A DNA stretch of 64,000 bases from Enterobacter phage EC152. Made by a program: the position numbers and the translations under genes. Shown here one piece after another: positions 3,661 through 63,879 of the stretch. The stretch is taken from the sequence record PP681140.1; one strand, 5' to 3'. Numbering within the stretch: the stretch's first letter is position 1; each line of letters opens with the position of its first letter. The notes beneath the pieces were generated by a model. The model was not told the origin of the DNA. It did no database searches and was given only the letters and a program-made list of their open reading frames with translations.

Positions 3661-4227
3661 ATGAATAACAAAATCACTTTCAACGATCAAGACGTAGCCG
3701 TTTTTAACTTCCTGAAAGAAAAAGGGATTGAATTTAAAGCAGTACACGGCGGAGTCAATAATGATCCTAGTTGGGAAGCGGATCTGTTTTTCGTGTCTTT
3801 TGAGCGTAACGGCAAAATGTACCGTTCAGAATTTAAAACTGGTACAGGTCACCGCGTAGGCCGTCATAGTGGCTTAACCTCTCAGGATAAAAAAGAGCTT
3901 GATAAAGTTGGCGCACAAATCGCCATCGTAGATCAAAAGCACTGGACACGCGACGATTACAAGCGTAATGATAATAAAGCTATGTCTTTTGGTTATCGTG
4001 TTTACGTTGCGACACCTTGCGCCGCAAACGTGCTTTACTGCCTGCTGTCTGATATGTCTTTTGGTGATGAAACTCATGCTGATTTTTGCGCTAATATGGG
4101 CTATGATGAGGACAGCCGCAAAGGTTTAGAAATGTATCTCGAATGTCAGAAAGTAGGACAGGAGATCCGCAAAATCTTTACAGGTGAGGAACTGGAAGCC
4201 CTGCGCGAAATGTTAGAGGATTATTAA
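3661..4227 (+). CDS. Hypothetical early protein, 188 aa
   Basis: Promoter TTGACT-17-TAAGAT at about 3566-3594; Shine-Dalgarno AAAAGGTAAA. Confidence 0.75.
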   Translation: MNNKITFNDQDVAVFNFLKEKGIEFKAVHGGVNNDPSWEADLFFVSFERNGKMYRSEFKTGTGHRVGRHSGLTSQDKKELDKVGAQIAIVDQKHWTRDDYKRNDNKAMSFGYRVYVATPCAANVLYCLLSDMSFGDETHADFCANMGYDEDSRKGLEMYLECQKVGQEIRKIFTGEELEALREMLEDY

Positions 4228-4230
4228 ACC

Positions 4231-4578
4231 GTGTTTAAAATCCTGTTTTTGGTGGCTGCTGCTGCTATCTACTGGAAGATCCCCGCTAGACTATGGCGGG
4301 GAGTTCTCTGGATTTACTACGAATACAGGATCGGCAAAGTGTATCACTATATAGAATATAAGTTTCACGGGAACCATTACCACACCCGGCGATCCGGGGC
4401 ATTAAATGATCTTGAGGGTAACGGGCTATTGTGTGAGGTGAAAAAGCGAGGCGGCAAAATCACTTATCACAAAGAAGGAACAAAAGAGCAAATCACCGAG
4501 ATCATAGAGTGGCGAGCTAATGAGCTAGCAGAAAAACAAGGCCGGATCATTCAACATGCACACAACAAACGAAAATAA
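4231..4578 (+). CDS. Hypothetical protein, 115 aa, with an N-terminal hydrophobic segment
   Basis: ORF follows the previous gene by 3 nt. Confidence 0.6.
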   Translation: MFKILFLVAAAAIYWKIPARLWRGVLWIYYEYRIGKVYHYIEYKFHGNHYHTRRSGALNDLEGNGLLCEVKKRGGKITYHKEGTKEQITEIIEWRANELAEKQGRIIQHAHNKRK

Positions 4579-4592
4579 AACGAGGGTTTAAA

Positions 4593-4796
4593 ATGCGAAA
4601 TATTGAGAAGATGACAAGCAAGCGTGATCGCCTGGCTTACGGTGAAGTAAACGAGCGCCGCCAACGTAACGACAAACTACACAAGCCGGAAAGGGTCGCT
4701 AAAACCTGGACGCCTGACCGTTATGATCCAAACCTCAATAAAAGGTTAGCGGATCGCAAACGTGCTTTACAGTGGCAAGCCGTACAAAATGACTAA
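4593..4796 (+). CDS. Hypothetical basic protein, 67 aa
   Basis: ORF with Shine-Dalgarno AACGAGGG. Confidence 0.55.
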   Translation: MRNIEKMTSKRDRLAYGEVNERRQRNDKLHKPERVAKTWTPDRYDPNLNKRLADRKRALQWQAVQND

Positions 4797-4800
4797 ACAA

Positions 4801-4829
4801 AGGCCGGGATAATTTCCCGGCTTTTTTCT
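4801..4829 (+). terminator. Rho-independent terminator (GGCCGGGATAATTTCCCGGC followed by a T6 run)
   Basis: GC hairpin followed by a T-run. Confidence 0.75.
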
Positions 4830-4858
4830 ATGCAAAAAAGTGAATTTAAAGAGTTCTC
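4828..4858 (+). promoter_or_regulatory. Copy 1 of the conserved motif cTATGCAAAAAAGTGAATTTAAAGAGTTCTC
   Basis: Near-identical copies at 5005-5035, 8935-8964, 10818-10848 and 10995-11020, with a variant at 9103-9140. Confidence 0.5.
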
Positions 4859-5004
4859 AGGCAGGCAATGCACTTGCCAGGGTTCGACATTGAAGCGCTT
4901 AGAGAGGCTTACAGGAGCTTTAAAGCGGTATCACGGCACCGCGCCACGCTCAAAAGGCCTTAAATTTAGTCACAAGGTGAAACTATTTGCATATGATTGA
5001 ATGC

Positions 5005-5035
5005 TTATGCAAAACAGTGAATATTGTAAAGATTT
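5005..5035 (+). promoter_or_regulatory. Copy 2 of the TATGCAAAA-AGTGAAT motif
   Basis: See copy 1. Confidence 0.45.
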
Positions 5036-5125
5036 AATAATTTTCTTGCGTCCTGGCGTGAATCTGTTAATATTTAACACGTAGGGCGACATAGTGAAGC
5101 CCACACAATCAAAAGGTAAATTATC

Positions 5126-5416
5126 ATGTGTAAAGTAATGAATGCTCTGACTAAAAACGCCCTAGAAAACAAATACCTGGGCAAAATGGTTTATCATAAT
5201 TATGGTCAAATCGGGTTCGGTGTGGTCACCGGGATCGATGACCGTGATCCCACAAAATTACGTTTACGCGTGAAGTTTACCCGCAATAATACCCCGGCGC
5301 ATATCCAGAAATATGACAACCGCGCGGATCGTGTTCGTTGCCTCCTGCCTCAATCGGTCACCGTGTCCCGTGTGCGTTATGAGGATTACAACCGCACAAA
5401 CCAGATCAAGAAATAG
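5126..5416 (+). CDS. Hypothetical early protein, 96 aa
   Basis: Promoter-like TTCTTG-17-TAATAT upstream; Shine-Dalgarno AAAAGGTAAA. Confidence 0.7.
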   Translation: MCKVMNALTKNALENKYLGKMVYHNYGQIGFGVVTGIDDRDPTKLRLRVKFTRNNTPAHIQKYDNRADRVRCLLPQSVTVSRVRYEDYNRTNQIKK

Positions 5417-5492
5417 CTTGCAATCTGCGCCGCTTATGGTATCTTTATTCATAGGCGGCAATAATGCCACCACTTAAAGAGAGGTAAACAAA

Positions 5493-5594
5493 ATGTTAGA
5501 TTATACAAACCTTTGGTGTGTGGCTGCTCTTGTATCTTTCATCGTTGCGGCTTGCTCTGTGGTCGCTATCCATATTATTTTAGAGGATCGTTAA
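5493..5594 (+). CDS. Small hydrophobic peptide, 33 aa (MLDYTNLWCVAALVSFIVAAC...), membrane
   Basis: Shine-Dalgarno AGAGAGGTAAA; not in the ORF track because it is under 60 aa. Confidence 0.55.
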   Translation: MLDYTNLWCVAALVSFIVAACSVVAIHIILEDR

Positions 5595-5595
5595 T

Positions 5596-5814
5596 ATGTT
5601 CGGGTTTATCGTTATGGCCTGCCATATCTCGCTAACTTCAATGAAGTTAGATTGTAGCTGGGATGTTAAAAAAACATTCCAAACAGAACAGGCTTGCAAC
5701 GTGTACGAAAACGAATACACGCTAGGCAAAGGCGAGCAGATCGGGGTCTGTGATGAGTTAGATCCTGGCGTTAAAGAAGGCGATAAACGCCCTATTCTCA
5801 CCCTCAAAAAGTAA
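5596..5814 (+). CDS. Hypothetical protein, 72 aa
   Basis: Start overlaps the upstream stop (TAATATG). Confidence 0.55.
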   Translation: MFGFIVMACHISLTSMKLDCSWDVKKTFQTEQACNVYENEYTLGKGEQIGVCDELDPGVKEGDKRPILTLKK

Positions 5815-5823
5815 GGGTTTACC

Positions 5824-6009
5824 ATGTTTGAAGTATTCGCCGGAATGTGTTTTTATGCCGCTATGGGCTTGCAACGTTGCGATGATTTCATCGTTGAATC
5901 ATACGACGATCAATTAACCTGTGAGATCGTAGCCAATGACTACCGCACGGATCGCCGCTGGATTAATCCCGCTTGCATCCCATCGCCGGAAGTTGAACCA
6001 ATGCCATAA
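5824..6009 (+). CDS. Hypothetical protein, 61 aa
   Basis: ORF begins 10 nt after the previous stop. Confidence 0.5.
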   Translation: MFEVFAGMCFYAAMGLQRCDDFIVESYDDQLTCEIVANDYRTDRRWINPACIPSPEVEPMP

Positions 6010-6016
6010 AATAAAT

Positions 6017-6045
6017 TTGACAACGGGGAACCGTTGATCAATAAT
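6017..6045 (+). promoter_or_regulatory. Sigma70-type promoter TTGACA-17-AATAAT
   Basis: Read directly from the sequence. Confidence 0.55.
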
Positions 6046-6093
6046 TACCAGACAAGGCCGGGAGCGGTTCCCGGTCACCTGGTGAGGTGAATC

Positions 6094-6210
6094 ATGAAAG
6101 GTTACCAAGTAGAATACACTACCGAAAACCCGGTTTACACCGAAGCGCGGATCATGTGTCGTCTGGTGTGGTTTTTCGTGATCTTCCTGCTGTTATTATC
6201 TTTATTCTAA
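6094..6210 (+). CDS. Small membrane peptide, 38 aa (MKGYQVEYTTENPVYTEARIMCRLVWFFVIFLLLLSLF)
   Basis: Preceded by promoter, hairpin 6056-6076 and GGTGAGGTGA Shine-Dalgarno; hydrophobic C-terminus. Confidence 0.55.
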   Translation: MKGYQVEYTTENPVYTEARIMCRLVWFFVIFLLLLSLF

Positions 6211-6225
6211 AACGAGGTTTTAAAA

Positions 6226-6567
6226 ATGGAACTGGCAAATAAATTTTTCTTCCTGGCTGGCGTATCTGACAAAGCAAAATGTGATTTTCGTCGTTTCGAT
6301 GATAAAACATTGTTGCGTTTTTGTCATGTTAATGACACTGTAAACGCTGATCGCCTGGATATCATGATCCGCACGGAAAACAGCATTGATCACGCTTCAC
6401 AAAGACCTTGCAAGGCGCATTATGTATCTTATCAGCTTGAAAGTGTGAAGGGTTATGTAAAACAGGCTGATAGCCTGCCGATCCGTGATGCTCTGGACGT
6501 TTTCGCGGTAGTTGTTGAGATTGTTAATGATGTTTTTCCGGTTGACTCTGAAAACCAGATCGGCTAA
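6226..6567 (+). CDS. Hypothetical early protein, 113 aa
   Basis: Shine-Dalgarno AACGAGGTTT. Confidence 0.7.
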   Translation: MELANKFFFLAGVSDKAKCDFRRFDDKTLLRFCHVNDTVNADRLDIMIRTENSIDHASQRPCKAHYVSYQLESVKGYVKQADSLPIRDALDVFAVVVEIVNDVFPVDSENQIG

Positions 6568-6620
6568 AGTATTCTAACAGGCCGGGGATTGTCCCCGGTC
6601 ACAATAGAAAGGTAAATATT

Positions 6621-6854
6621 ATGGCACGTTACACTAAAACCGTGGATATCTGGGACGCTCAAACCAACGTTGCAAAATTGCAGCCGGGGCAATGGGTAGA
6701 GGCTGGCAAAGGCGGTGATCGCGGGATCTTCTGTGGTGTAAAACGCTCTGGATCTGTGGTTGTTGCCTGGAAGAATAACGCAAGCAACCATAAGCGCGGC
6801 GGGTATCGTGGCTATATTTCCGATCTGTTTTCTTATGCTAAAGTGTGGGCTTGA
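6621..6854 (+). CDS. Hypothetical early protein, 77 aa
   Basis: Hairpin 6580-6600 followed by Shine-Dalgarno GAAAGGTAAA. Confidence 0.75.
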   Translation: MARYTKTVDIWDAQTNVAKLQPGQWVEAGKGGDRGIFCGVKRSGSVVVAWKNNASNHKRGGYRGYISDLFSYAKVWA

Positions 6855-6856
6855 TT

Positions 6857-7189
6857 ATGAAAAATAAAAATGTTTATTGGTCTTCCTCGTGCGGTCGCCT
6901 TTGTCTGATTTTCCGTGACCGTGACCAGGTAGAAGAGATCGCCCACTCTGGGGACTGTGAAGCCTCCACCGTTGAAGCCTTGCCCTATTTCCGGGACGGC
7001 TTACAGTTTAGCGCCTACACCGATCAAATGATCCGGGATTACCTGGCCGAAACCGGGATCGAGCGTGAAGGGGTAGACGGGATCGACAACATGGATCGCC
7101 ACACCCTGGAAATGTACCTGTTATGGATCGCGGCTTGCGATATGCTGGACGTGTTCAACATTGGCGATGATTACGGGGAAGATGAATAA
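6857..7189 (+). CDS. Hypothetical early protein, about 110 aa (MKNKNVYW...)
   Basis: The ATG overlaps the upstream stop; the track start at 6845 is a GTG. Confidence 0.6.
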   Translation: MKNKNVYWSSSCGRLCLIFRDRDQVEEIAHSGDCEASTVEALPYFRDGLQFSAYTDQMIRDYLAETGIEREGVDGIDNMDRHTLEMYLLWIAACDMLDVFNIGDDYGEDE

Positions 7190-7205
7190 AAACGCTTGCA
7201 AGCCA

Positions 7206-7234
7206 GGTGCGGATCGGTTAATATCTTTTTGAGG
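7206..7234 (+). promoter_or_regulatory. Sigma70-type promoter TTGCAA-17-TAATAT
   Basis: Read directly from the sequence. Confidence 0.55.
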
Positions 7235-7275
7235 CCGGGGAATACCTCCCCGGCAAGCCAGAAAGGTAAACAAAA

Positions 7276-7665
7276 ATGCAAAATTTCATCACTATCACCA
7301 ATAACGATAAACTGCAATCTCTGATCGGTATCCTTAACGATGTTTCACCGTTTATCGTTAAAAATCTTTACGCACATTTGAAAAATGTTAAACCCGCTAT
7401 TTGGTCTGCTCATTGCTATGACCAGGACGAAAGCGCGGCGGCATACATGATCGAAATGTTAAAAGATAGTATGCAACTTTGTTTATCTCAAAGCGTTATT
7501 AATGAAGTTGATAGCCGTTTATCTCTGGCTATTGAATACCAGGTGCAAGCAATGTATAATCAGTTAGACATTGAAGAGCAGCAAGATCAGGATTCATTCT
7601 GGGATCGTGCTGATGCTCAAAGCGCCTTTGATGACCGTTTAGCAATGTATGCTAACGAATACTAA
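7276..7665 (+). CDS. Hypothetical early protein, 129 aa, acidic
   Basis: Hairpin 7233-7254 followed by Shine-Dalgarno GAAAGGTAAAC. Confidence 0.75.
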   Translation: MQNFITITNNDKLQSLIGILNDVSPFIVKNLYAHLKNVKPAIWSAHCYDQDESAAAYMIEMLKDSMQLCLSQSVINEVDSRLSLAIEYQVQAMYNQLDIEEQQDQDSFWDRADAQSAFDDRLAMYANEY

Positions 7666-7715
7666 ACAAAACAAGGCCGGGGACGTTCCCCGGCATAATC
7701 TGAAAGGTAAAGCAA

Positions 7716-7940
7716 ATGTTAAAGAATCAAACCGGGCAAACTGAATTTTTACGCAACCTTATCGCTGGTGAAAAGGCTGTATGGTTCTGTGAAGGTGCAA
7801 ACGTAGATCCGGAAATGCGGAAAATGACCGCCACCGTGTGCAAGGCGAAACTAGGCTTTAAAATCCGTCAATCAAAAGCCCTGATCGTTACTCCTGATTC
7901 TATCCCGCAAGCAATCATCATTATTGAGCGTATATCATGA
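7716..7940 (+). CDS. Hypothetical early protein, 74 aa
   Basis: Hairpin 7675-7694 followed by Shine-Dalgarno GAAAGGTAAAG. Confidence 0.7.
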   Translation: MLKNQTGQTEFLRNLIAGEKAVWFCEGANVDPEMRKMTATVCKAKLGFKIRQSKALIVTPDSIPQAIIIIERIS

Positions 7941-55977: not shown

Positions 55978-56373
55978 TTAACTACGCTTTTCGTAACCTT
56001 CTGCCTGATAGTAGGTAGTATTGTGCGGTGTTTCAATGCTAAAACTGATCTGGCAGAGTTCTTGGGCTAAGAATGTACCAAGTTCAACAGCCATGTCAAG
56101 TATTTCGTGCTCAGGACGCTCAAAGCGCGGGTACTGCATGATCCGGGCAGTCATACCATCCTCAACACCACCTGTGTACACGTAGGTACACGGGGAGATC
56201 TGCACACAAGCGCCTTTCATCACCCACTGGCGACACAGGTTTTCAGCCTGATTGTAGTTGCCAGCGATGTGAATTGTTGCATAGAAAGACTTAGAAGTCT
56301 TCTTTGGTAAAAAATTACGAGGCTTGTTGTGCATATTATTCTCCATGATCAACAGTGTAAATTGGTTTAGCAA
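55978..56373 (-). CDS. Hypothetical protein, 131 aa
   Basis: ORF on the minus strand. Confidence 0.5.
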   Translation of the reverse strand: MLNQFTLLIMENNMHNKPRNFLPKKTSKSFYATIHIAGNYNQAENLCRQWVMKGACVQISPCTYVYTGGVEDGMTARIMQYPRFERPEHEILDMAVELGTFLAQELCQISFSIETPHNTTYYQAEGYEKRS

Positions 56374-56935
56374 GGCACATCATAACAGCTTCACGCATCG
56401 TTAAAGGACGACCATGCACATCCCAACCCACATCCAAAATACGCCCACCAGGGGCCGTATAGGAGCCGTGGCTGTGACCGTGCAGCATTACCGACCCGTG
56501 GTGAGCTTTATTCCACGAGGCAAAAGGATAGTGGGACATACATACCTTCACCTTTTCTTTTCCGGTGCTGAACTCAATTTCCTTATAGTCCACAACTTCA
56601 TGACCAAACTCACGGAAGATACGCTTGGTCTGATGGTTGTCATGATTACCACCAACCAGAATGATCTTCCCATTGATACGACTCAGGATATCACGAACTT
56701 TTGGCTCAACATGCTTACCATAGGCAATAACGAAATCCCCCAGGTGTGCCACCACATCGTCAGGCTTGACGTGTTTGTTCCACGTCTTAACCATGTCGTC
56801 ATTCATTTTTACAACTGAGGCTGAGTCTTCTTTCGGGCCGTACAGGTTCTTACGGAACTTATCACACGATGGGAAACCAAGAATGTTGGTGTGCCACCAG
56901 TGGGTGTCTGATGTAACGTGATCAATTTGAATCAT
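56336..56935 (-). CDS. Calcineurin-like metallophosphoesterase
   Basis: Motifs DTHWWH, GDFV(I)..., GGNHDNH, HGHSH. Confidence 0.75.
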   Translation of the reverse strand: MIQIDHVTSDTHWWHTNILGFPSCDKFRKNLYGPKEDSASVVKMNDDMVKTWNKHVKPDDVVAHLGDFVIAYGKHVEPKVRDILSRINGKIILVGGNHDNHQTKRIFREFGHEVVDYKEIEFSTGKEKVKVCMSHYPFASWNKAHHGSVMLHGHSHGSYTAPGGRILDVGWDVHGRPLTMREAVMMCLAKPIYTVDHGE

Positions 56936-57599: not shown

Positions 57600-57992
57600 T
57601 CAGAGCGTTATACGAATCTCACTGAGATCCACCACACAATTATTACTCTCGATATGTTCCACTGTCAAGTCCTTATACCATACCACAGTGACATTTCTTT
57701 GTCTTAGACGACTACGTAATGACGTGAGGTAGTCACCGAACACTTCCTGCTCAGACTTACCATCTGGTAAAACCACACACACATTTTGTTCTTTCATTGA
57801 TTCATGAAACACATCACGAATCAACATGAGCCTTGACTTCTCCTCGTCAGTCTGTTCAGCTTTACGACGAGGTTTACCACACACCATATCACCAATATCT
57901 TTTGTTTGTTTACTTGACAACATTACAATCTCCTTTAACAATACGAGCATTCTACATGAACAAAATCTGAAGTCAACCCCTTGACAGCACAT
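57600..57992 (-). CDS. Hypothetical protein (130 aa ORF; probable start MLSSKQTK)
   Basis: First gene of the leftward cluster. Confidence 0.45.
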   Translation of the reverse strand: MCCQGVDFRFCSCRMLVLLKEIVMLSSKQTKDIGDMVCGKPRRKAEQTDEEKSRLMLIRDVFHESMKEQNVCVVLPDGKSEQEVFGDYLTSLRSRLRQRNVTVVWYKDLTVEHIESNNCVVDLSEIRITL

Positions 57993-58061
57993 TCCTGTTC
58001 ATTCATACTGCGGTTCATCAAGTGAACGACTCTTTGATAGTAGAATATATAGATCATACTA

Positions 58062-58188
58062 AAAGATCTTGTTTTTAGATCTTATGTTTTATTGTTTTTA
58101 TAAAAGAGTATTGTTTTATTTATTTTATATAGTATTTATTTCTGTTATCAATTTGAGACTAGGCTTAGTATCAATTTGAGTATAGGCT
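58062..58188. promoter_or_regulatory. AT-rich divergent control region: palindrome AAGATCT-n7-AGATCTT (58062-58082) and two 20-bp iteron-like direct repeats TATCAATTTGAG(AC/TA)TAGGCT (58146-58165, 58169-58188)
   Basis: Read directly; lies immediately upstream of the HTH gene. Confidence 0.5.
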
Positions 58189-58201
58189 ATGGAGGAGAGA
58201 C

Positions 58202-58519
58202 ATGGGGTACATCGCGTCAGGTAAGCACATCTACGGTAACTTCGAACTGAAGTTGCTGTCGGTGACCTGCGCCTCGTCCAACGACAAGATTGTGTACCTC
58301 TACATGCGTCATCAGTATCACTACTTCAAGTCTCTCCGGAAAACGTATCATGAGTCGCTTGATAGTATTGCTGATGCCACAGGATTATCGAGGGCAACTG
58401 TTGCCAGGTGTGTGAGCAACCTTGAAAAGATAAAGTGGTTGACAAAGGACACAACACGCACCAACATGGGCCACAACAAAACGATTTACGAAATTCACAA
58501 TTGGACAGAGGAGAAATAA
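58202..58519 (+). CDS. Winged-helix/HTH DNA-binding regulator, 105 aa
   Basis: SLDSIADATGLSRATVARCVSNLEKIKWL HTH; Shine-Dalgarno GGAGGAGAGA. Confidence 0.65.
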   Translation: MGYIASGKHIYGNFELKLLSVTCASSNDKIVYLYMRHQYHYFKSLRKTYHESLDSIADATGLSRATVARCVSNLEKIKWLTKDTTRTNMGHNKTIYEIHNWTEEK

Positions 58520-58520
58520 A

Positions 58521-59333
58521 ATGAGTATTGAATTACGTTTGAACAAACTGGTTGTTCCTGTAGACCACTTCACCTTTAAGGGTGGTGAGGAACAGGTCAA
58601 AATTGACCTAAAACACGCACCAAAAGGCGGTATTGGTTTCGTAGATATCACTGCCAAAATCAAAAATTCAACTGATGTCATGGCACTGGCTATGTTGGTG
58701 GATGCGTGTTCCCGTTTGGAAGGATTGCATAACCACGCAGAGTTCACCCTGCACCTTCCATACATCCCGTATGCACGTCAAGACCGTGTAATGAACCCAG
58801 GTGAAGCGTTATCTATTAAGGTTTTCGCAAACATTGTCAACTCGCTTGGTTTCGACACGGTTATCGTTGATGACCCGCACAGCGATGTCTCTGCTGCACT
58901 GCTCAATAACGTCCGTATCCGTGGTCAGGATGTTCTTATTTCCGAGATGAAAGATCTTGGCAACTCCACATTGCATAGCAACTCTTTGGTTGTGGTAGCA
59001 CCTGATGCGGGTGCTCGCAAGAAAGCCCATAAGGTTGCTGACCGATTCAGTCTTCCTCTTGTTGAGGCTGGTAAAGTACGTGATTTGCAGACCAACGAAA
59101 TCACTGGTACTGCGGTGTTCGGAGATGTTGAAGGTAAAGTGTGTATGATTGTTGATGATATCTGCGACGGTGGTCGTACATTCATCGCCCTTGCACAGGC
59201 CCTGAAAGAAAACGGTGCGAAACGTGTTATCCTGTACGTTACTCACGGTATCTTTTCTTTCGGTAAACAGGTCATCCTCGATGGTGGGGTTGATGAAATC
59301 TATGCGTATCATGACTGGACGGAGAATTTTTAA
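58521..59333 (+). CDS. Ribose-phosphate pyrophosphokinase (Prs) family enzyme; likely ADP-ribose pyrophosphate synthetase (Adps) of a NAD-reconstitution pathway
   Basis: HLPYIPYARQDR and MIVDDICDGGRTFIALAQALKENGAKRVILYVTHGIFS align with the Prs catalytic and PRPP-binding loops; N-terminal domain shortened. Confidence 0.8.
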   Translation: MSIELRLNKLVVPVDHFTFKGGEEQVKIDLKHAPKGGIGFVDITAKIKNSTDVMALAMLVDACSRLEGLHNHAEFTLHLPYIPYARQDRVMNPGEALSIKVFANIVNSLGFDTVIVDDPHSDVSAALLNNVRIRGQDVLISEMKDLGNSTLHSNSLVVVAPDAGARKKAHKVADRFSLPLVEAGKVRDLQTNEITGTAVFGDVEGKVCMIVDDICDGGRTFIALAQALKENGAKRVILYVTHGIFSFGKQVILDGGVDEIYAYHDWTENF

Positions 59334-59866
59334 TGACTGAATCAACAAGTTTTATTTTTGTTGTCGATACAGATTCCTATGCTGGTAATTTTGAGCGTGA
59401 CATGTGCGCTCATATCACCGGGCAGATTGGTGAATGCGGTGTTGGTGCAGAGTACCGCACCGATATTGAAGACCTAAAAGAAGACCATTACGATTTTGAT
59501 CTCGAAAAAATCTGTGAGTGGTTAGAAAATAATGTTCTCCAGGTTCCAGATGAACACGCCTGCTATCGCCCATGTGCGATTTACCCAACACCGGGGCGTA
59601 CAAACAACGGCGGTGGTGTGCATTCTGATGTGACCGCAAATAATCCATTCAAGTGGCCTGCATACGAAAGTGTAGCTATCTACATCCGTGAAGAACCACC
59701 TGAAGATGTGGTACGTTTCATGGTCATCCGTGCTAACACTTTCTATATTCGTGCGACCAAGTGGTCACCAGCCAAAGAAATCAAGGTAAAAGGTTGCAGA
59801 TTGGTTAAAGAAACGACAACTGTGAAAACAGAATCGAAATCTTTAGACTTTTCACTTGACATCTAA
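59333..59866 (+). CDS. Hypothetical protein, 177 aa, translationally coupled between the Prs-like and NAMPT-like genes
   Basis: TAATG overlap with the upstream gene; no recognisable motif (no Nudix box, no HxGH). Confidence 0.6.
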   Translation: MTESTSFIFVVDTDSYAGNFERDMCAHITGQIGECGVGAEYRTDIEDLKEDHYDFDLEKICEWLENNVLQVPDEHACYRPCAIYPTPGRTNNGGGVHSDVTANNPFKWPAYESVAIYIREEPPEDVVRFMVIRANTFYIRATKWSPAKEIKVKGCRLVKETTTVKTESKSLDFSLDI

Positions 59867-59919
59867 ACCGAACGGGGTGTAGAATCACCCCATCAAAACA
59901 CACAAAGGAGAAACAAAAC

Positions 59920-61611
59920 ATGCTGCATAAAGAAAGTCCACTTTGCCACGCTGACTTTTATAAACCTTCACACATCTCCATGTACGATCAACGTTCTGAG
60001 ATTGTTCAGGACAACATGACACCACGTAATGCAAAGCACTTCATTCATTTCGCTGATAATGACCAGCGTGTGATGATGGCTGGCCTGCAAGGTTTCATTA
60101 AGTGGTTCCTGATCGATATGTTTAACGAAAACTTTTTCAAAATGAAAAAGGAAGACGCTCTGGCCCAGTACAAAGAAATTTGTGATCTGAGCATCGGTCC
60201 GAACATGGTTGAAACATGGGGCTTTGAAAAACTTCACGACCTCGGTTATCTGCCACTGGAAATCCGCTCAATTCCTGAAGGTACACTGTCTCCAGTACAG
60301 GTTCCGCTGTTCACCATCCAGAACACGCACCCTGATTTCTACTGGTTGCCGAACTTCCTGGAAAGTGTGATCTCAGCAGAAACCTGGAAAACTATCACAA
60401 CTGCAACTACATTCTGGCAGTATCGTAAGCTGTCTGAAGCGTGGGCCGCTGAAACCTGTGACAACAATCTGCACGTTCCGTTCCAGAACCACTGCTTCGC
60501 GTATCGCGGTGAATCAGGTACTCACGATGCAGCACAGAGCGAGTTTGGTCAACTGATCAACTCAATGGGTACAGATACCATTCCTGCGATTCTGTATGCA
60601 ATGCGTTATTACAACATGAAAGGTAAGTTCGTTGCTGGTTCTATCCCCGCATCAGAACACAGTGTTGCAACAACTAACATTGGCTTTATCGTCGGTCGCC
60701 TGAAAACTGAAAATCCTGATCTGTCTCTGGATGAACTGCGTTTCCTGGCTGAAGTTGAATTCCTGAAACGCTACATCACGGAAATTTTCCCGAAAGGTTT
60801 TGTTTCCTACGTAGCAGACAGCTATGACTTCTGGGCGATTATCACCCGCGCAGCGCTGATTCTAAAAGAAGATATCATGGCTCGTGACGGTCGTGTTGTG
60901 TTCCGTCCTGACTCAGGTATTCCAGAGCACATCATCGCTGGGTATTATATCCTGCCTGGTGAATATAAAACCTGCTCAGACGCATTTGATGAGCTTGAGC
61001 GATTTGAAGGTCCATATACTCCTGAAGTTGTGAATGTGCAGGGGACTTGGTTCACCATTGAATATAACGAGTTCTCAGATACAACGATTACTCGTTCAGA
61101 ACTTACAGACCATGAAGTCAAAGGTGCAATCCAGTGCCTGTGGGAAATCTTTGGTGGTGAAATTAACTCCAAAGGCTACAAAGTTCTGGACAGTCATGTT
61201 GGCCTGATCTACGGTGACTCTATCACTGTCGCTCGTGCAAAAGACATCTTTGAACGTCTGAAAGACCATGGTTTTGCATCCAGCAACATTGTGTTCGGGG
61301 TTGGTTCTTATACCACACAGTACACAACCCGTGATTCACTGGGTATGGCTGTGAAGGCAACTGGTGCGGTTATTGATGGTCAGCAGATCATGGTTGTCAA
61401 AGAACCGAAGACTGATCTCGGTAAGAAATCTGCAAAAGGTTTCCTGAAGGTTGTTCGTGATGAGAATGGTGAACTGAAACTGGTTGACAATTGTCAGCTT
61501 GAAGATGTACAGTCTGACGATAACGAACTGCGTCGTGTGTTCTACAATGGCAAACTGATTGTCGATGAAGACCTGACAACGATTCGTGAACGAGCAGCCG
61601 CTCAACTGTAA
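59920..61611 (+). CDS. Nicotinamide phosphoribosyltransferase (NAMPT/NadV) family enzyme; likely Namat of a NAD-reconstitution pathway
   Basis: 563 aa with typical NAMPT regions (…GYRGESGTHDAAQ…, …VFGVGSYT…); Shine-Dalgarno AAAGGAGAAAC. Confidence 0.8.
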   Translation: MLHKESPLCHADFYKPSHISMYDQRSEIVQDNMTPRNAKHFIHFADNDQRVMMAGLQGFIKWFLIDMFNENFFKMKKEDALAQYKEICDLSIGPNMVETWGFEKLHDLGYLPLEIRSIPEGTLSPVQVPLFTIQNTHPDFYWLPNFLESVISAETWKTITTATTFWQYRKLSEAWAAETCDNNLHVPFQNHCFAYRGESGTHDAAQSEFGQLINSMGTDTIPAILYAMRYYNMKGKFVAGSIPASEHSVATTNIGFIVGRLKTENPDLSLDELRFLAEVEFLKRYITEIFPKGFVSYVADSYDFWAIITRAALILKEDIMARDGRVVFRPDSGIPEHIIAGYYILPGEYKTCSDAFDELERFEGPYTPEVVNVQGTWFTIEYNEFSDTTITRSELTDHEVKGAIQCLWEIFGGEINSKGYKVLDSHVGLIYGDSITVARAKDIFERLKDHGFASSNIVFGVGSYTTQYTTRDSLGMAVKATGAVIDGQQIMVVKEPKTDLGKKSAKGFLKVVRDENGELKLVDNCQLEDVQSDDNELRRVFYNGKLIVDEDLTTIRERAAAQL

Positions 61612-61617
61612 TCAATA

Positions 61618-61637
61618 AGCCCCTTCGGGGGCTTTTC
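61618..61637 (+). terminator. Rho-independent terminator AAGCCCCTTCGGGGGCTTTT
   Basis: Hairpin plus T-run. Confidence 0.75.
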
Positions 61638-61650
61638 TGATAGGTAGACT

Positions 61651-62877: not shown

Positions 62878-62951
62878 GGTTCTGTAGCTTAGTTGGTTAG
62901 AGCGCTTCCCTCATAAGGAAGAGGTCGCAGGTTCAATCCCTGCCAGAACTA
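62878..62951 (+). tRNA. tRNA-Met (anticodon CAU)
   Basis: Manual cloverleaf: acceptor GGTTCTG/CAGAACT (G1-U72), D-arm GCTT-AGTTGGTTA-GAGC, anticodon stem CTTCC/GGAAG with loop CTCATAA, T-arm GCAGG-TTCAATC-CCTGC, discriminator A; CCA encoded at 62952-62954. Confidence 0.8.
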
Positions 62952-62968
62952 CCAAACGAGGAGAGACC

Positions 62969-63743: not shown

Positions 63744-63816
63744 GGGGTATTAACTCAGCGGTTAGAGTAGCGGCCTCTTAAGCCGAAGGTCGAAGGTTCG
63801 AATCCTTCATGCCCTA
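63744..63816 (+). tRNA. tRNA-Lys (anticodon CUU)
   Basis: Manual cloverleaf: acceptor GGGGTAT/ATGCCCT, D-arm ACTC-AGCGGTTA-GAGT, anticodon loop CTCTTAA, T-arm GAAGG-TTCGAAT-CCTTC, discriminator A, CCA encoded. Confidence 0.75.
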
Positions 63817-63879
63817 CCAAACAACGGGCTTTGGAAGTAATGCTTAATTACGGGTGAGGAATCCCCGGACCCCCAGCTT

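Follow-up and report, generated by a model that had tools for sequence, protein, structure and literature searches.

A probable NARP1 counter-defence operon with a winged-helix gene and an extra reading frame in a GAP31-like Seunavirus

Enterobacter phage EC152 (sequence record PP681140.1) carries, in the 64,000-nucleotide (nt) stretch of DNA analysed here (the window), four plus-strand open reading frames (ORFs) that span positions 58202-61611. On the evidence of sequence comparison, this region is probably the NARP1 counter-defence operon of a GAP31-like Seunavirus, to which a gene for a winged-helix (wHTH) protein and a 177-residue ORF have been added in this lineage, outside the core pathway. 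NARP1 is a recently discovered and widespread phage route past NAD+-depleting immunity. In the work on Bas63 and SpβL1, ADP-ribose (ADPR) and ATP yield ADPR pyrophosphate (ADPR-PP), which with nicotinamide then yields NAD+. The NARP1 core found here is already catalogued, as GAP31 and 4MG in Osterman et al. 2024 (bioRxiv 10.1101/2024.02.11.579819), and the additions are uncharacterised. The source phage is a GAP31-like Seunavirus (Vequintavirinae); the DNA of its operon region is 96% identical to that of Cronobacter phage GAP31 (Vequintavirinae, Seunavirus) and 88-95% identical to that of the E. coli phages LNA4 and 4MG. An earlier note, drawn from the letters of this stretch, had proposed a regulated NAD-rebuilding module with an extra coupled gene, and several of its claims are taken up below. 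The operon and its signals are as follows (aa, amino acids).

58202-58519, plus strand: ORF1, wHTH protein, 105 aa
58521-59333, plus strand: ORF2, predicted Adps (ADP-ribose diphosphokinase, Prs-like), the first NARP1 enzyme, 270 aa
59333-59866, plus strand: ORF3, member of an uncharacterised phage family, between Adps and the Namat promoter, 177 aa
59856-59885, with hairpin to 59891, plus strand: predicted Namat promoter, TTGACA-N18-TAGAAT, 11 of 12 consensus matches
59920-61611, plus strand: ORF4, predicted Namat (nicotinamide ADP-ribose transferase, NAMPT-like), the second NARP1 enzyme, 563 aa
60943-61116, plus strand: hypervariable Namat insertion, aa 342-399, from the alignment with GAP31
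61617-61640, plus strand: intrinsic terminator, AGCCCCU-UCGG-GGGGCU followed by a U tract, -15 kcal/mol, z-score -2.45

The identification of the first enzyme rests on close orthology. ORF2 contains the Pfam domains Pribosyltran, Pribosyl_synth and Pribosyltran_N, matches phrog_619 and is 99.6% identical to GAP31 protein JN882284_00173. The supplement of Osterman et al. 2024 lists this protein and KF550303_00114 of 4MG among its Prs/Adps homologues, and we read the mark 'Yes' on both entries of that table as membership of the Adps clade. Homologues of Adps occur in about 1,568 phage records; ORF2 is 37-40% identical to the Adps of Felix O1-type phages and of AV123 (Justusliebigvirus), and it matches bacterial Prs with an E-value of only 1e-24. 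The truncated N-terminal domain pointed out in the earlier note is real, at about 17 aa shorter than in bacterial Prs, but the C-terminus is short as well. Relatives have an Adps of 278-297 aa, and shortness at both ends compared with Prs is a trait of the phage Adps family in general. In addition, the protein encoded here lacks a C-terminal tail of about 20 aa that the Felix O1-type and AV123 proteins possess.

The second enzyme is identified by its closest relatives and by its signature residues. ORF4 contains a NAPRTase domain, matches phrog_448 and is 88% identical to the GAP31 Namat; JN882284_00175 (GAP31) and KF550303_00112 (4MG) are listed in the same supplement as 'Adps-associated' Namat. 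Its best match in the Protein Data Bank is 9w5x/9w5w (E = 2e-123), which we take to be SpβL1 Namat on the basis of residue numbering, compared with 1e-44 for human NAMPT. Namat is distinguished by an adenine-clamp motif, GSXΦXΦXΦTRD, with two adenine-stacking aromatic residues, which true Nampt lacks. ORF4 reads GSYTTQYTTRD at aa 462-472 (nt 61303-61335), with Y464 and Y468 as the aromatics, and the true Nampt of a jumbo-phage contig discussed below (L053) reads GGKLLQADINRD at this position. The published catalytic core of Namat comprises D13', Y15', F189, R192, D215, the catalytic His, R306 and D308 (PMC12774641), and ORF4 residues D12, Y14, F193, R196, D219, H247, R329 and D331 align with the catalytic residues of 9w5x. 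At the position of the selectivity clamp Arg40', ORF4 aligns Lys39 in a loop that is five residues longer, and the source paper describes this loop as variable. Together, the supplementary entries, the clamp motif and the catalytic residues bear out the proposal that the Prs-like and NAMPT-like proteins form an Adps/Namat module. With the mechanism taken from Bas63 and SpβL1 and carried over by orthology and signature residues, Adps would use ATP to pyrophosphorylate the ADP-ribose set free by immune NADases, and Namat would join the ADPR-PP to nicotinamide, giving NAD+.

The NAMPT homologue had also been called unusually long, which does not hold among its proper relatives. Its 563 aa are an ordinary length for Namats of enterobacterial myoviruses (560-593 aa), with 593 aa in the Felix O1-type phage EC6, which belongs to the same genus as the experimentally studied Bas63, and 577 aa in AV123. 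ORF4 has the same two insertions, at about aa 253-275 and at aa 342-399, as these Felix O1-type (Bas63-like) and AV123 enzymes. The second of these is hypervariable: identity to GAP31 in 30-column blocks falls to 21-31% over the insertion and is 93-100% in most flanking blocks, and blastn alignments are interrupted at 60945-61099. In this group of close relatives the insertion exists in at least three variants, including the window's own, those of GAP31 and 4MG, and a form common to SPLA5a, KE23, Mydo and one further relative (L020). Raoultella phage Ro1 matches the whole Namat gene at 92% in one unbroken alignment, which suggests that it carries the same insertion variant as the window. SpβL1 Namat has almost no counterpart to aa 342-399, and the pattern suggests an exchange of cassettes, or diversifying selection, at a surface insertion missing from the SpβL1 enzyme.

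The four ORFs lie where the earlier note had placed them, and its description of four genes chained by their stop and start codons applies to the first three. ORF1 ends with TAA at 58517-58519, followed by one base and then the ATG of ORF2, so that these two genes do not overlap, and ORF2 and ORF3 overlap by one base (TAATG). ORF4, on the other hand, begins 53 nt after ORF3, and 586 nt past the Adps stop codon on the same strand with one ORF between. Between ORF3 and ORF4 there is a near-consensus sigma-70 promoter, together with a separate ribosome-binding site, AAAGGAG. ORF4 is not coupled to ORF3, so three genes are chained, not four. In this promoter, the -10 element sits in the loop of a hairpin, GGGGTG/CACCCC (59874-59891), giving the layout TTGACA-N12-GGGGTG-TAGAAT-CACCCC-ATCA, and the -35 element falls within the last ORF3 codons in phages that have ORF3. 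The stem covaries between relatives, being GGTGC/GCACC in KE23 and GGGCG/CGCCC in Mydo, and TTGACA and a -10-like loop persist. A sibling hairpin promoter lies on the minus strand at about 50246-50206, TTGACA-N10-GGGGTC-TGTATAAT-GACCCC-ATCA. The terminator that had been described as strong has a 7-bp G+C stem, a UUCG loop and a U tract. Transcription would probably proceed as two units, one comprising wHTH, Adps and ORF3 from an upstream promoter with read-through and the other comprising Namat from its own promoter, and both would end at the terminator at 61617-61640.

The first addition to this core is the wHTH gene, which is preceded by a divergent intergenic region (57993-58201) with the following elements in it or at its edge.

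57981-58009, plus strand: promoter-like TTGACA-N17-CATACT, 10 of 12 matches, likely start of the wHTH-Adps-ORF3 transcript
58051-58082: imperfect GATC-rich palindrome, AGATCA ... AGATCT-N7-AGATCT, largely kept in relatives, with a small deletion in SPLA5a
58085-58129: two A+T-rich 18-nt direct repeats in an A+T-rich tract, in columns that are nearly invariant in six phages
58146-58188: two 20-bp direct repeats, core TCAAnnTGAG-nATAGGC, candidate binding sites for the wHTH protein

The two 20-bp repeats and the palindrome reported in the earlier note are thus present. Repeat 1 (58146-58165, TATCAATTTGAGACTAGGCT) and repeat 2 (58169-58188, TATCAATTTGAGTATAGGCT) are identical at 18 of 20 positions and start 23 bp apart, and each contains a small palindrome, TCAAWTTGA. 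No further copies, of the kind that a regulon would have, were found in the 64-kb window. The repeats keep their 23-bp spacing and nearly the same sequence in Proteus phage Mydo, in Erwinia phage pEp_SNUABM_01 and in a metagenomic relative (L078), and this conservation holds even though the wHTH proteins of the latter two are only 65-67% identical to ORF1. Across six phages the intergenic region is nearly invariant and more conserved than the flanking genes (Seuna- and Mydovirus), and the -35 TTGACA and the -10 region of the promoter-like site are kept in GAP31, 4MG, SPLA5a, KE23 and Mydo. The coding strand switches at 58,000, where the cumulative GC skew of the window also has its minimum. 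This conservation, together with the strand switch and the skew minimum, makes 57993-58201 a candidate origin or master control region. A search of the long conserved leader against Rfam for a riboswitch or other known RNA returned nothing except the downstream tRNAs.

The wHTH gene occurs in 37 phage records, from Seuna-, Mydo- and Henunavirus and their relatives, and at every examined locus it is followed immediately by Adps, the two being separated by 1 nt or overlapping by 4 nt. It is missing from NARP1 in Felix O1-type phages and in AV123 (Justusliebigvirus). The N-terminal third of the profile phrog_8102 ('replication initiation protein') matches ORF1, which also gives weak matches to lambda-O-like, DnaD-like, IclR and HTH_36 models and has a fold resembling the N-terminal domains of RepA_N (4pta) and DnaD. 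Nine homologues were found, all of 81-114 aa. Among the leads that were set aside, the Pfam family 'wHTH-PRTase associated' might have linked the wHTH protein to Adps, but its match, at 22 bits, falls short of the cut-off (27). ORF1 also has a weak PADLOC match to the model PRTase_III-A, a name that presumably refers to the wHTH protein of a retron-type defence effector and not to a NARP1 context.

Most likely, judging from the layout of the DNA, the wHTH protein binds the two conserved 18-20-bp repeats just ahead of its own ribosome-binding site and regulates the divergent control region. Its gene, which keeps its place immediately before Adps in Seuna-, Mydo- and Henunavirus, would then govern expression from this divergent region. 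Two observations sit poorly with such a role: the protein resembles replication-initiator N-terminal domains more than classical repressors, and no plus-strand promoter overlapping the repeats was detected, the plus-strand candidate lying about 190 nt upstream of them. A minus-strand promoter-like site, TTGATA-N18-TAAAAT, does overlap repeat 1.

A possible, though less favoured, explanation is that the wHTH gene and its upstream region are a replication origin with a minimal origin-binding protein, and NARP1 is the first cargo of a rightward early unit. By sequence and by fold, the protein is most like the N-terminal domains found in replication proteins of the lambda-O-like, RepA_N and DnaD types. 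The DNA has an origin-like layout, with two iteron-like repeats beside an almost invariant A+T-rich tract that has repeats of its own and a GATC-rich palindrome, and the skew minimum and strand switch coincide at about 58,000 next to non-coding DNA better conserved than its flanks. However, ORF1 ends without a C-terminal domain that could recruit a helicase or primase, and the homologues found are all of 81-114 aa; the putative origin has only two repeats, and phage GC skew tracks the direction of transcription as well as that of replication. In addition, the gene was found only in the 37 records above, with Adps directly downstream at every examined locus and tightly coupled to it, and the E. 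coli rV5-type phages are not among the matches. An origin-related role is a live rival because of the initiator-like relatives and because of the site at the strand switch and skew minimum, and it could hold together with the regulator role, the two not being mutually exclusive and both fitting. The wHTH gene and its repeats are real and conserved, and the protein could be a regulator or an origin-binding protein. A dedicated, iteron-controlled regulator, as the earlier note had described it, is plausible from the sequence: wHTH and repeats constantly accompany this NARP1 lineage. The initiator-like relatives and the strand-switch location speak for the origin-related rival.

The second addition, ORF3, is a real and conserved protein. 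As had been noted, it has no recognisable motif: searches of Pfam, NCBIfam and PADLOC returned no match, and only phrog_23621 (unknown function) matches it, end to end. Its family is nevertheless large: a 90%-identity database contains 81 homologues, and a search at the 50%-identity level gives 1,767 clusters, of which 773 have E <1e-30. Nearly all are stand-alone proteins of 150-240 aa. The family alignment has the signature hhhDTDxYAGNFER...TGQxGECxVG, PDEHGCxRP and PAYxSVAIFF, and the strongly conserved polar residues of ORF3 are D12, T13, N19, E21, R22, D73, R79 and R133. AlphaFold2 models it with a pLDDT of 95.2 as a ferredoxin-like beta-alpha-beta-beta-alpha-beta core with inserts, for which a Foldseek search of viral models gave a single relative (170 aa) and no close structural relative. 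A Macro (Adpp) protein is ruled out by Pfam and structure comparison, and an RyR (RyDEP) protein was rejected on the lack of an RyR Pfam match and on an alpha/beta model without an RyR match. Domain fusions were uninformative as a clue to function; one homologue (P0021) has a DUF6575 domain and another (P0092) an N-terminus without a Pfam match.

Within the 'phages' collection, ORF3 is found in 15 records, namely 11 GAP31-type Seunavirus records (which include GAP31, LNA4, 4MG, the EspYZU phages, SPLA5a and Csp-D17), Salmonella phage 21, one uncultured phage and Bacillus phage G (two records). It is present in 12 of the roughly 1,568 Adps-bearing phage records, all 12 from the GAP31-type Seunavirus group. 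Salmonella phage 21 was considered as an independent, distant copy of the four-gene operon and rejected, being an error-rich Seunavirus sequence with 84% DNA identity to SPLA5a; the low protein identity of its ORFs is due to frameshifts. This 52-kb record (KR296685, 'UNVERIFIED') contains many short mis-annotated coding sequences that are frameshift artefacts, such as a 'PotC' placed over the ORF3 homologue.

The same operon occurs without ORF3 in Salmonella phage KE23, of the same genus, in Mydo and in L078, and pEp_SNUABM_01 has an unrelated 52-aa ORF at this position. In the junction alignment, ORF3 occupies exactly the interval from the Adps stop codon to the conserved TTGACA. Given this exact fit and the absence from sister operons, ORF3 appears to be an insertion in a variable slot and not a part of the core pathway, and the sister phages without it indicate that it is dispensable for NARP1 as such. 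The Adps-Namat junctions of relatives, by our locus labels, are at these positions.

L075: 3983-4045
L076: 4259-4326
L078: 6157-6251
L080: 5157-5394
L048: 5378-7024

The slot is empty in Mydo, KE23 and L078 and holds the 52-aa ORF in pEp_SNUABM_01. In L048, an IMG/VR contig, it contains three ORFs encoding 164 aa, a 212-aa Macro-like protein and 81 aa. ORF3 would be a horizontally acquired gene, translationally coupled to Adps, in a slot of changing content.

The genomic neighbourhoods of ORF3 homologues provide a further view of its function. The sample comprised 64 viral-contig loci and several metagenome contigs, searched with the proteins of the window and with NAD-related proteins, and a Pfam scan covered three genes on each side of 49 representative loci. 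That scan gave no recurrent partner: the commonest families occurred two or three times, and DUF4326 and SLOG were each seen once. The surroundings are in most cases unremarkable parts of large and jumbo phage genomes, devoted to early functions or nucleotide metabolism. Genes for ADP-ribose or NAD metabolism lie near an ORF3 homologue in roughly 10 of about 50 lineages, and Adps or Namat lies within 6 kb only in the Seunavirus group and in L048, where the homologue is about 1.8 kb upstream of an Adps-x-Macro-like-x-Namat (NARP1-AP-type) operon. The jumbo-phage contig L053 has, at 3818-7849, a row of Nampt (with the true Nampt motif), a 201-aa ORF, the ORF3 homologue, NADAR, nucleoside 2-deoxyribosyltransferase-like (NDT-like) and Macro genes, with a Prs-like gene about 4 kb beyond this island. 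In phage G, the homologue gp332 is two genes from an NDT-like protein annotated as Nudix; elsewhere, homologues lie 5 kb from an NDT-metallophosphatase gene (L025), adjoin a 597-aa Nudix protein (the L006 group) or have weak Macro-like matches nearby (L002 and L033). As a lead, in a survey with no matched control set, these neighbours mildly suggest a loose link of the family to ADP-ribose or NAD metabolism.

We consider it unlikely that ORF3 is a true third component of NARP1, either a feeder that would turn a non-canonical product of NAD+ breakdown or an immune signal into ADP-ribose, in the way of Adpp with ADPR-1''-phosphate and RyDEP with 2'/3'cADPR, or a helper that would handle ADPR-PP or the dead-end ADPR cyclic phosphate (ADPR-cP). 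Several facts nevertheless favour such a component and weigh against placing ORF3 outside the pathway. It fills the slot between Adps and Namat, as Adpp does in Vibrio phage Gary; its start codon overlaps the Adps stop codon, coupling it to Adps; and it evolves about as slowly as the enzymes of the operon (80-90% identity to 4MG and SPLA5a). The neighbourhood survey used to judge its associations relied on a crude ORF caller and, as said, had no control set. The strongly conserved polar residues lie within a confident fold, homologues in several independent lineages stand beside Macro, NADAR, NDT-like, Nudix, Nampt or NARP1 genes, and ADPR-PP decays spontaneously to ADPR-cP, so that a helper for this labile intermediate is conceivable. 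On the other side, ORF3 is missing from sister operons of the same genus and subfamily, more than 80% of the lineages of its family lack NAD and ADP-ribose genes closer than about 6 kb, and no informative domain fusion was found. The earlier note had named absence of the middle ORF from homologous operons as half of what would speak against its idea, and this absence is what KE23, Mydo and L078 display. ORF3 is consequently not a regular third component of the module, given also the 12 of about 1,568 Adps records and the homologues that mostly lie elsewhere, and a regulated three-component module is not established.

Our best guess for ORF3 is instead an independent auxiliary or counter-defence protein. 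It may bind or process an ADP-ribose-type nucleotide, a suggestion that we rate somewhat below an even chance. A bolder version, that phrog_23621 is a new protein class acting on an ADP-ribose-derived molecule and, in GAP31-type phages, a third NARP1 extension beside Adpp and RyDEP, seems improbable at present; the molecule that it binds or converts might then be a signal of the immune system, a product of non-canonical NAD+ cleavage, or ADPR-PP or ADPR-cP.

For the operon as a whole, plain salvage, in which Prs makes PRPP, NAMPT makes NMN and host enzymes complete NAD+ with no ADPR-based reconstitution, is very improbable: the generic family labels (ribose-phosphate diphosphokinase; nicotinate/nicotinamide phosphoribosyltransferase) and the residual PRPP-dependent NMN synthesis that Namat retains in vitro would allow it, but the counterparts in GAP31 and 4MG belong to the Adps clade and to the Namats associated with Adps, ORF4 has the adenine-clamp motif that true Nampt lacks, SpβL1 Namat matches ORF4 with an E-value about 80 orders of magnitude better than any NAMPT, and the Bas63 pathway functions without the host genes pncC and nadR.

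Some neighbours of the operon deserve mention. A metallophosphoesterase-like gene, the counterpart of GAP31_174, lies at 56336-56935 on the minus strand, within the leftward unit and some 1.3 kb away from the control region. Downstream of the operon, tRNA-Met (62878-62954, plus strand) and tRNA-Lys (63744-63819, plus strand) begin a tRNA cluster, and the NARP1 operon of AV123 is likewise at a strand switch and followed by tRNAs. In L078, a SIR2-domain protein is encoded at 185-1075 on the minus strand, about 4 kb left of the wHTH-Adps-Namat operon, and a phage-borne SIR2 so close to an NAD+-rebuilding operon is curious.

The region bears on how NARP1 is extended and controlled. Two 2026 preprints, on Adpp and RyDEP, show that genes inside or beside the operon enable NARP1 to recycle more kinds of immune product. 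ORF3 is a concrete candidate for a further extension because it is confidently folded, widespread and in the same slot. As a well-defined, widespread protein in the slot of known NARP1 accessories, it is a reasonable target for experiments, and the Adps-Namat slot, whether empty or filled by ORF3, by the 52-aa ORF or by Macro and other genes, is a place to seek NARP1 accessories. Should ORF3 turn out to have nothing to do with NAD+, what is left is an operon that has already been catalogued. The wHTH protein and its repeats would be the first lead on control of NARP1 expression, or on the start of replication in Vequintavirinae.

Compared with NARP1 of Bas63, Fado and SpβL1 (Osterman et al. 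2024, Lan et al. 2026), the operon described here pairs the same enzyme families, with Adps before Namat as there, but the enzyme genes are not adjacent, with the 177-aa ORF and a promoter between them, and a wHTH gene heads the operon. NARP2 consists of a true Nampt and an NMN adenylyltransferase (NMNAT), and the four ORFs include neither an NMNAT nor a Nudix gene, with ORF4 bearing the Namat motif. The iteron-binding initiators and primosome proteins (RepA_N 4pta, DnaD/DnaB, lambda O-like) have an N-terminal winged helix that matches ORF1, and differ from it in that ORF1 has only 105 aa without a C-terminal effector, has two repeats in place of an array and is always coupled to Adps. In mycobacteriophage DyoEdafos, a small accessory protein is likewise encoded beside NARP1: the RyR-domain RyDEP, which converts 2'/3'cADPR to ADPR (Lopez Rivera et al. 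2026, bioRxiv 10.64898/2026.05.28.727677). RyDEP is an RyR-repeat domain and ORF3 is alpha/beta and ferredoxin-like, and no RyR-domain glycosidase was recognised beside NARP1 here by Pfam or by the ORF3 model. Additional genes are sometimes present in NARP1 operons (Osterman et al. 2026, bioRxiv 10.64898/2026.01.28.702374), and in 15% of NARP1 phages the Macro phosphatase Adpp lies between Adps and Namat, converting ADPR-1''-phosphate made by aRES to ADPR (bioRxiv 10.64898/2026.01.28.702374), which sets a precedent for slot-borne enzymes that supply NARP1 with ADPR. No such Macro-domain ADPR-1''-phosphate phosphatase is present in this operon, which nonetheless has, like the NARP1-AP system of Vibrio phage Gary (Adps-Adpp-Namat), a three-gene layout with an extra gene in the slot between Adps and Namat.

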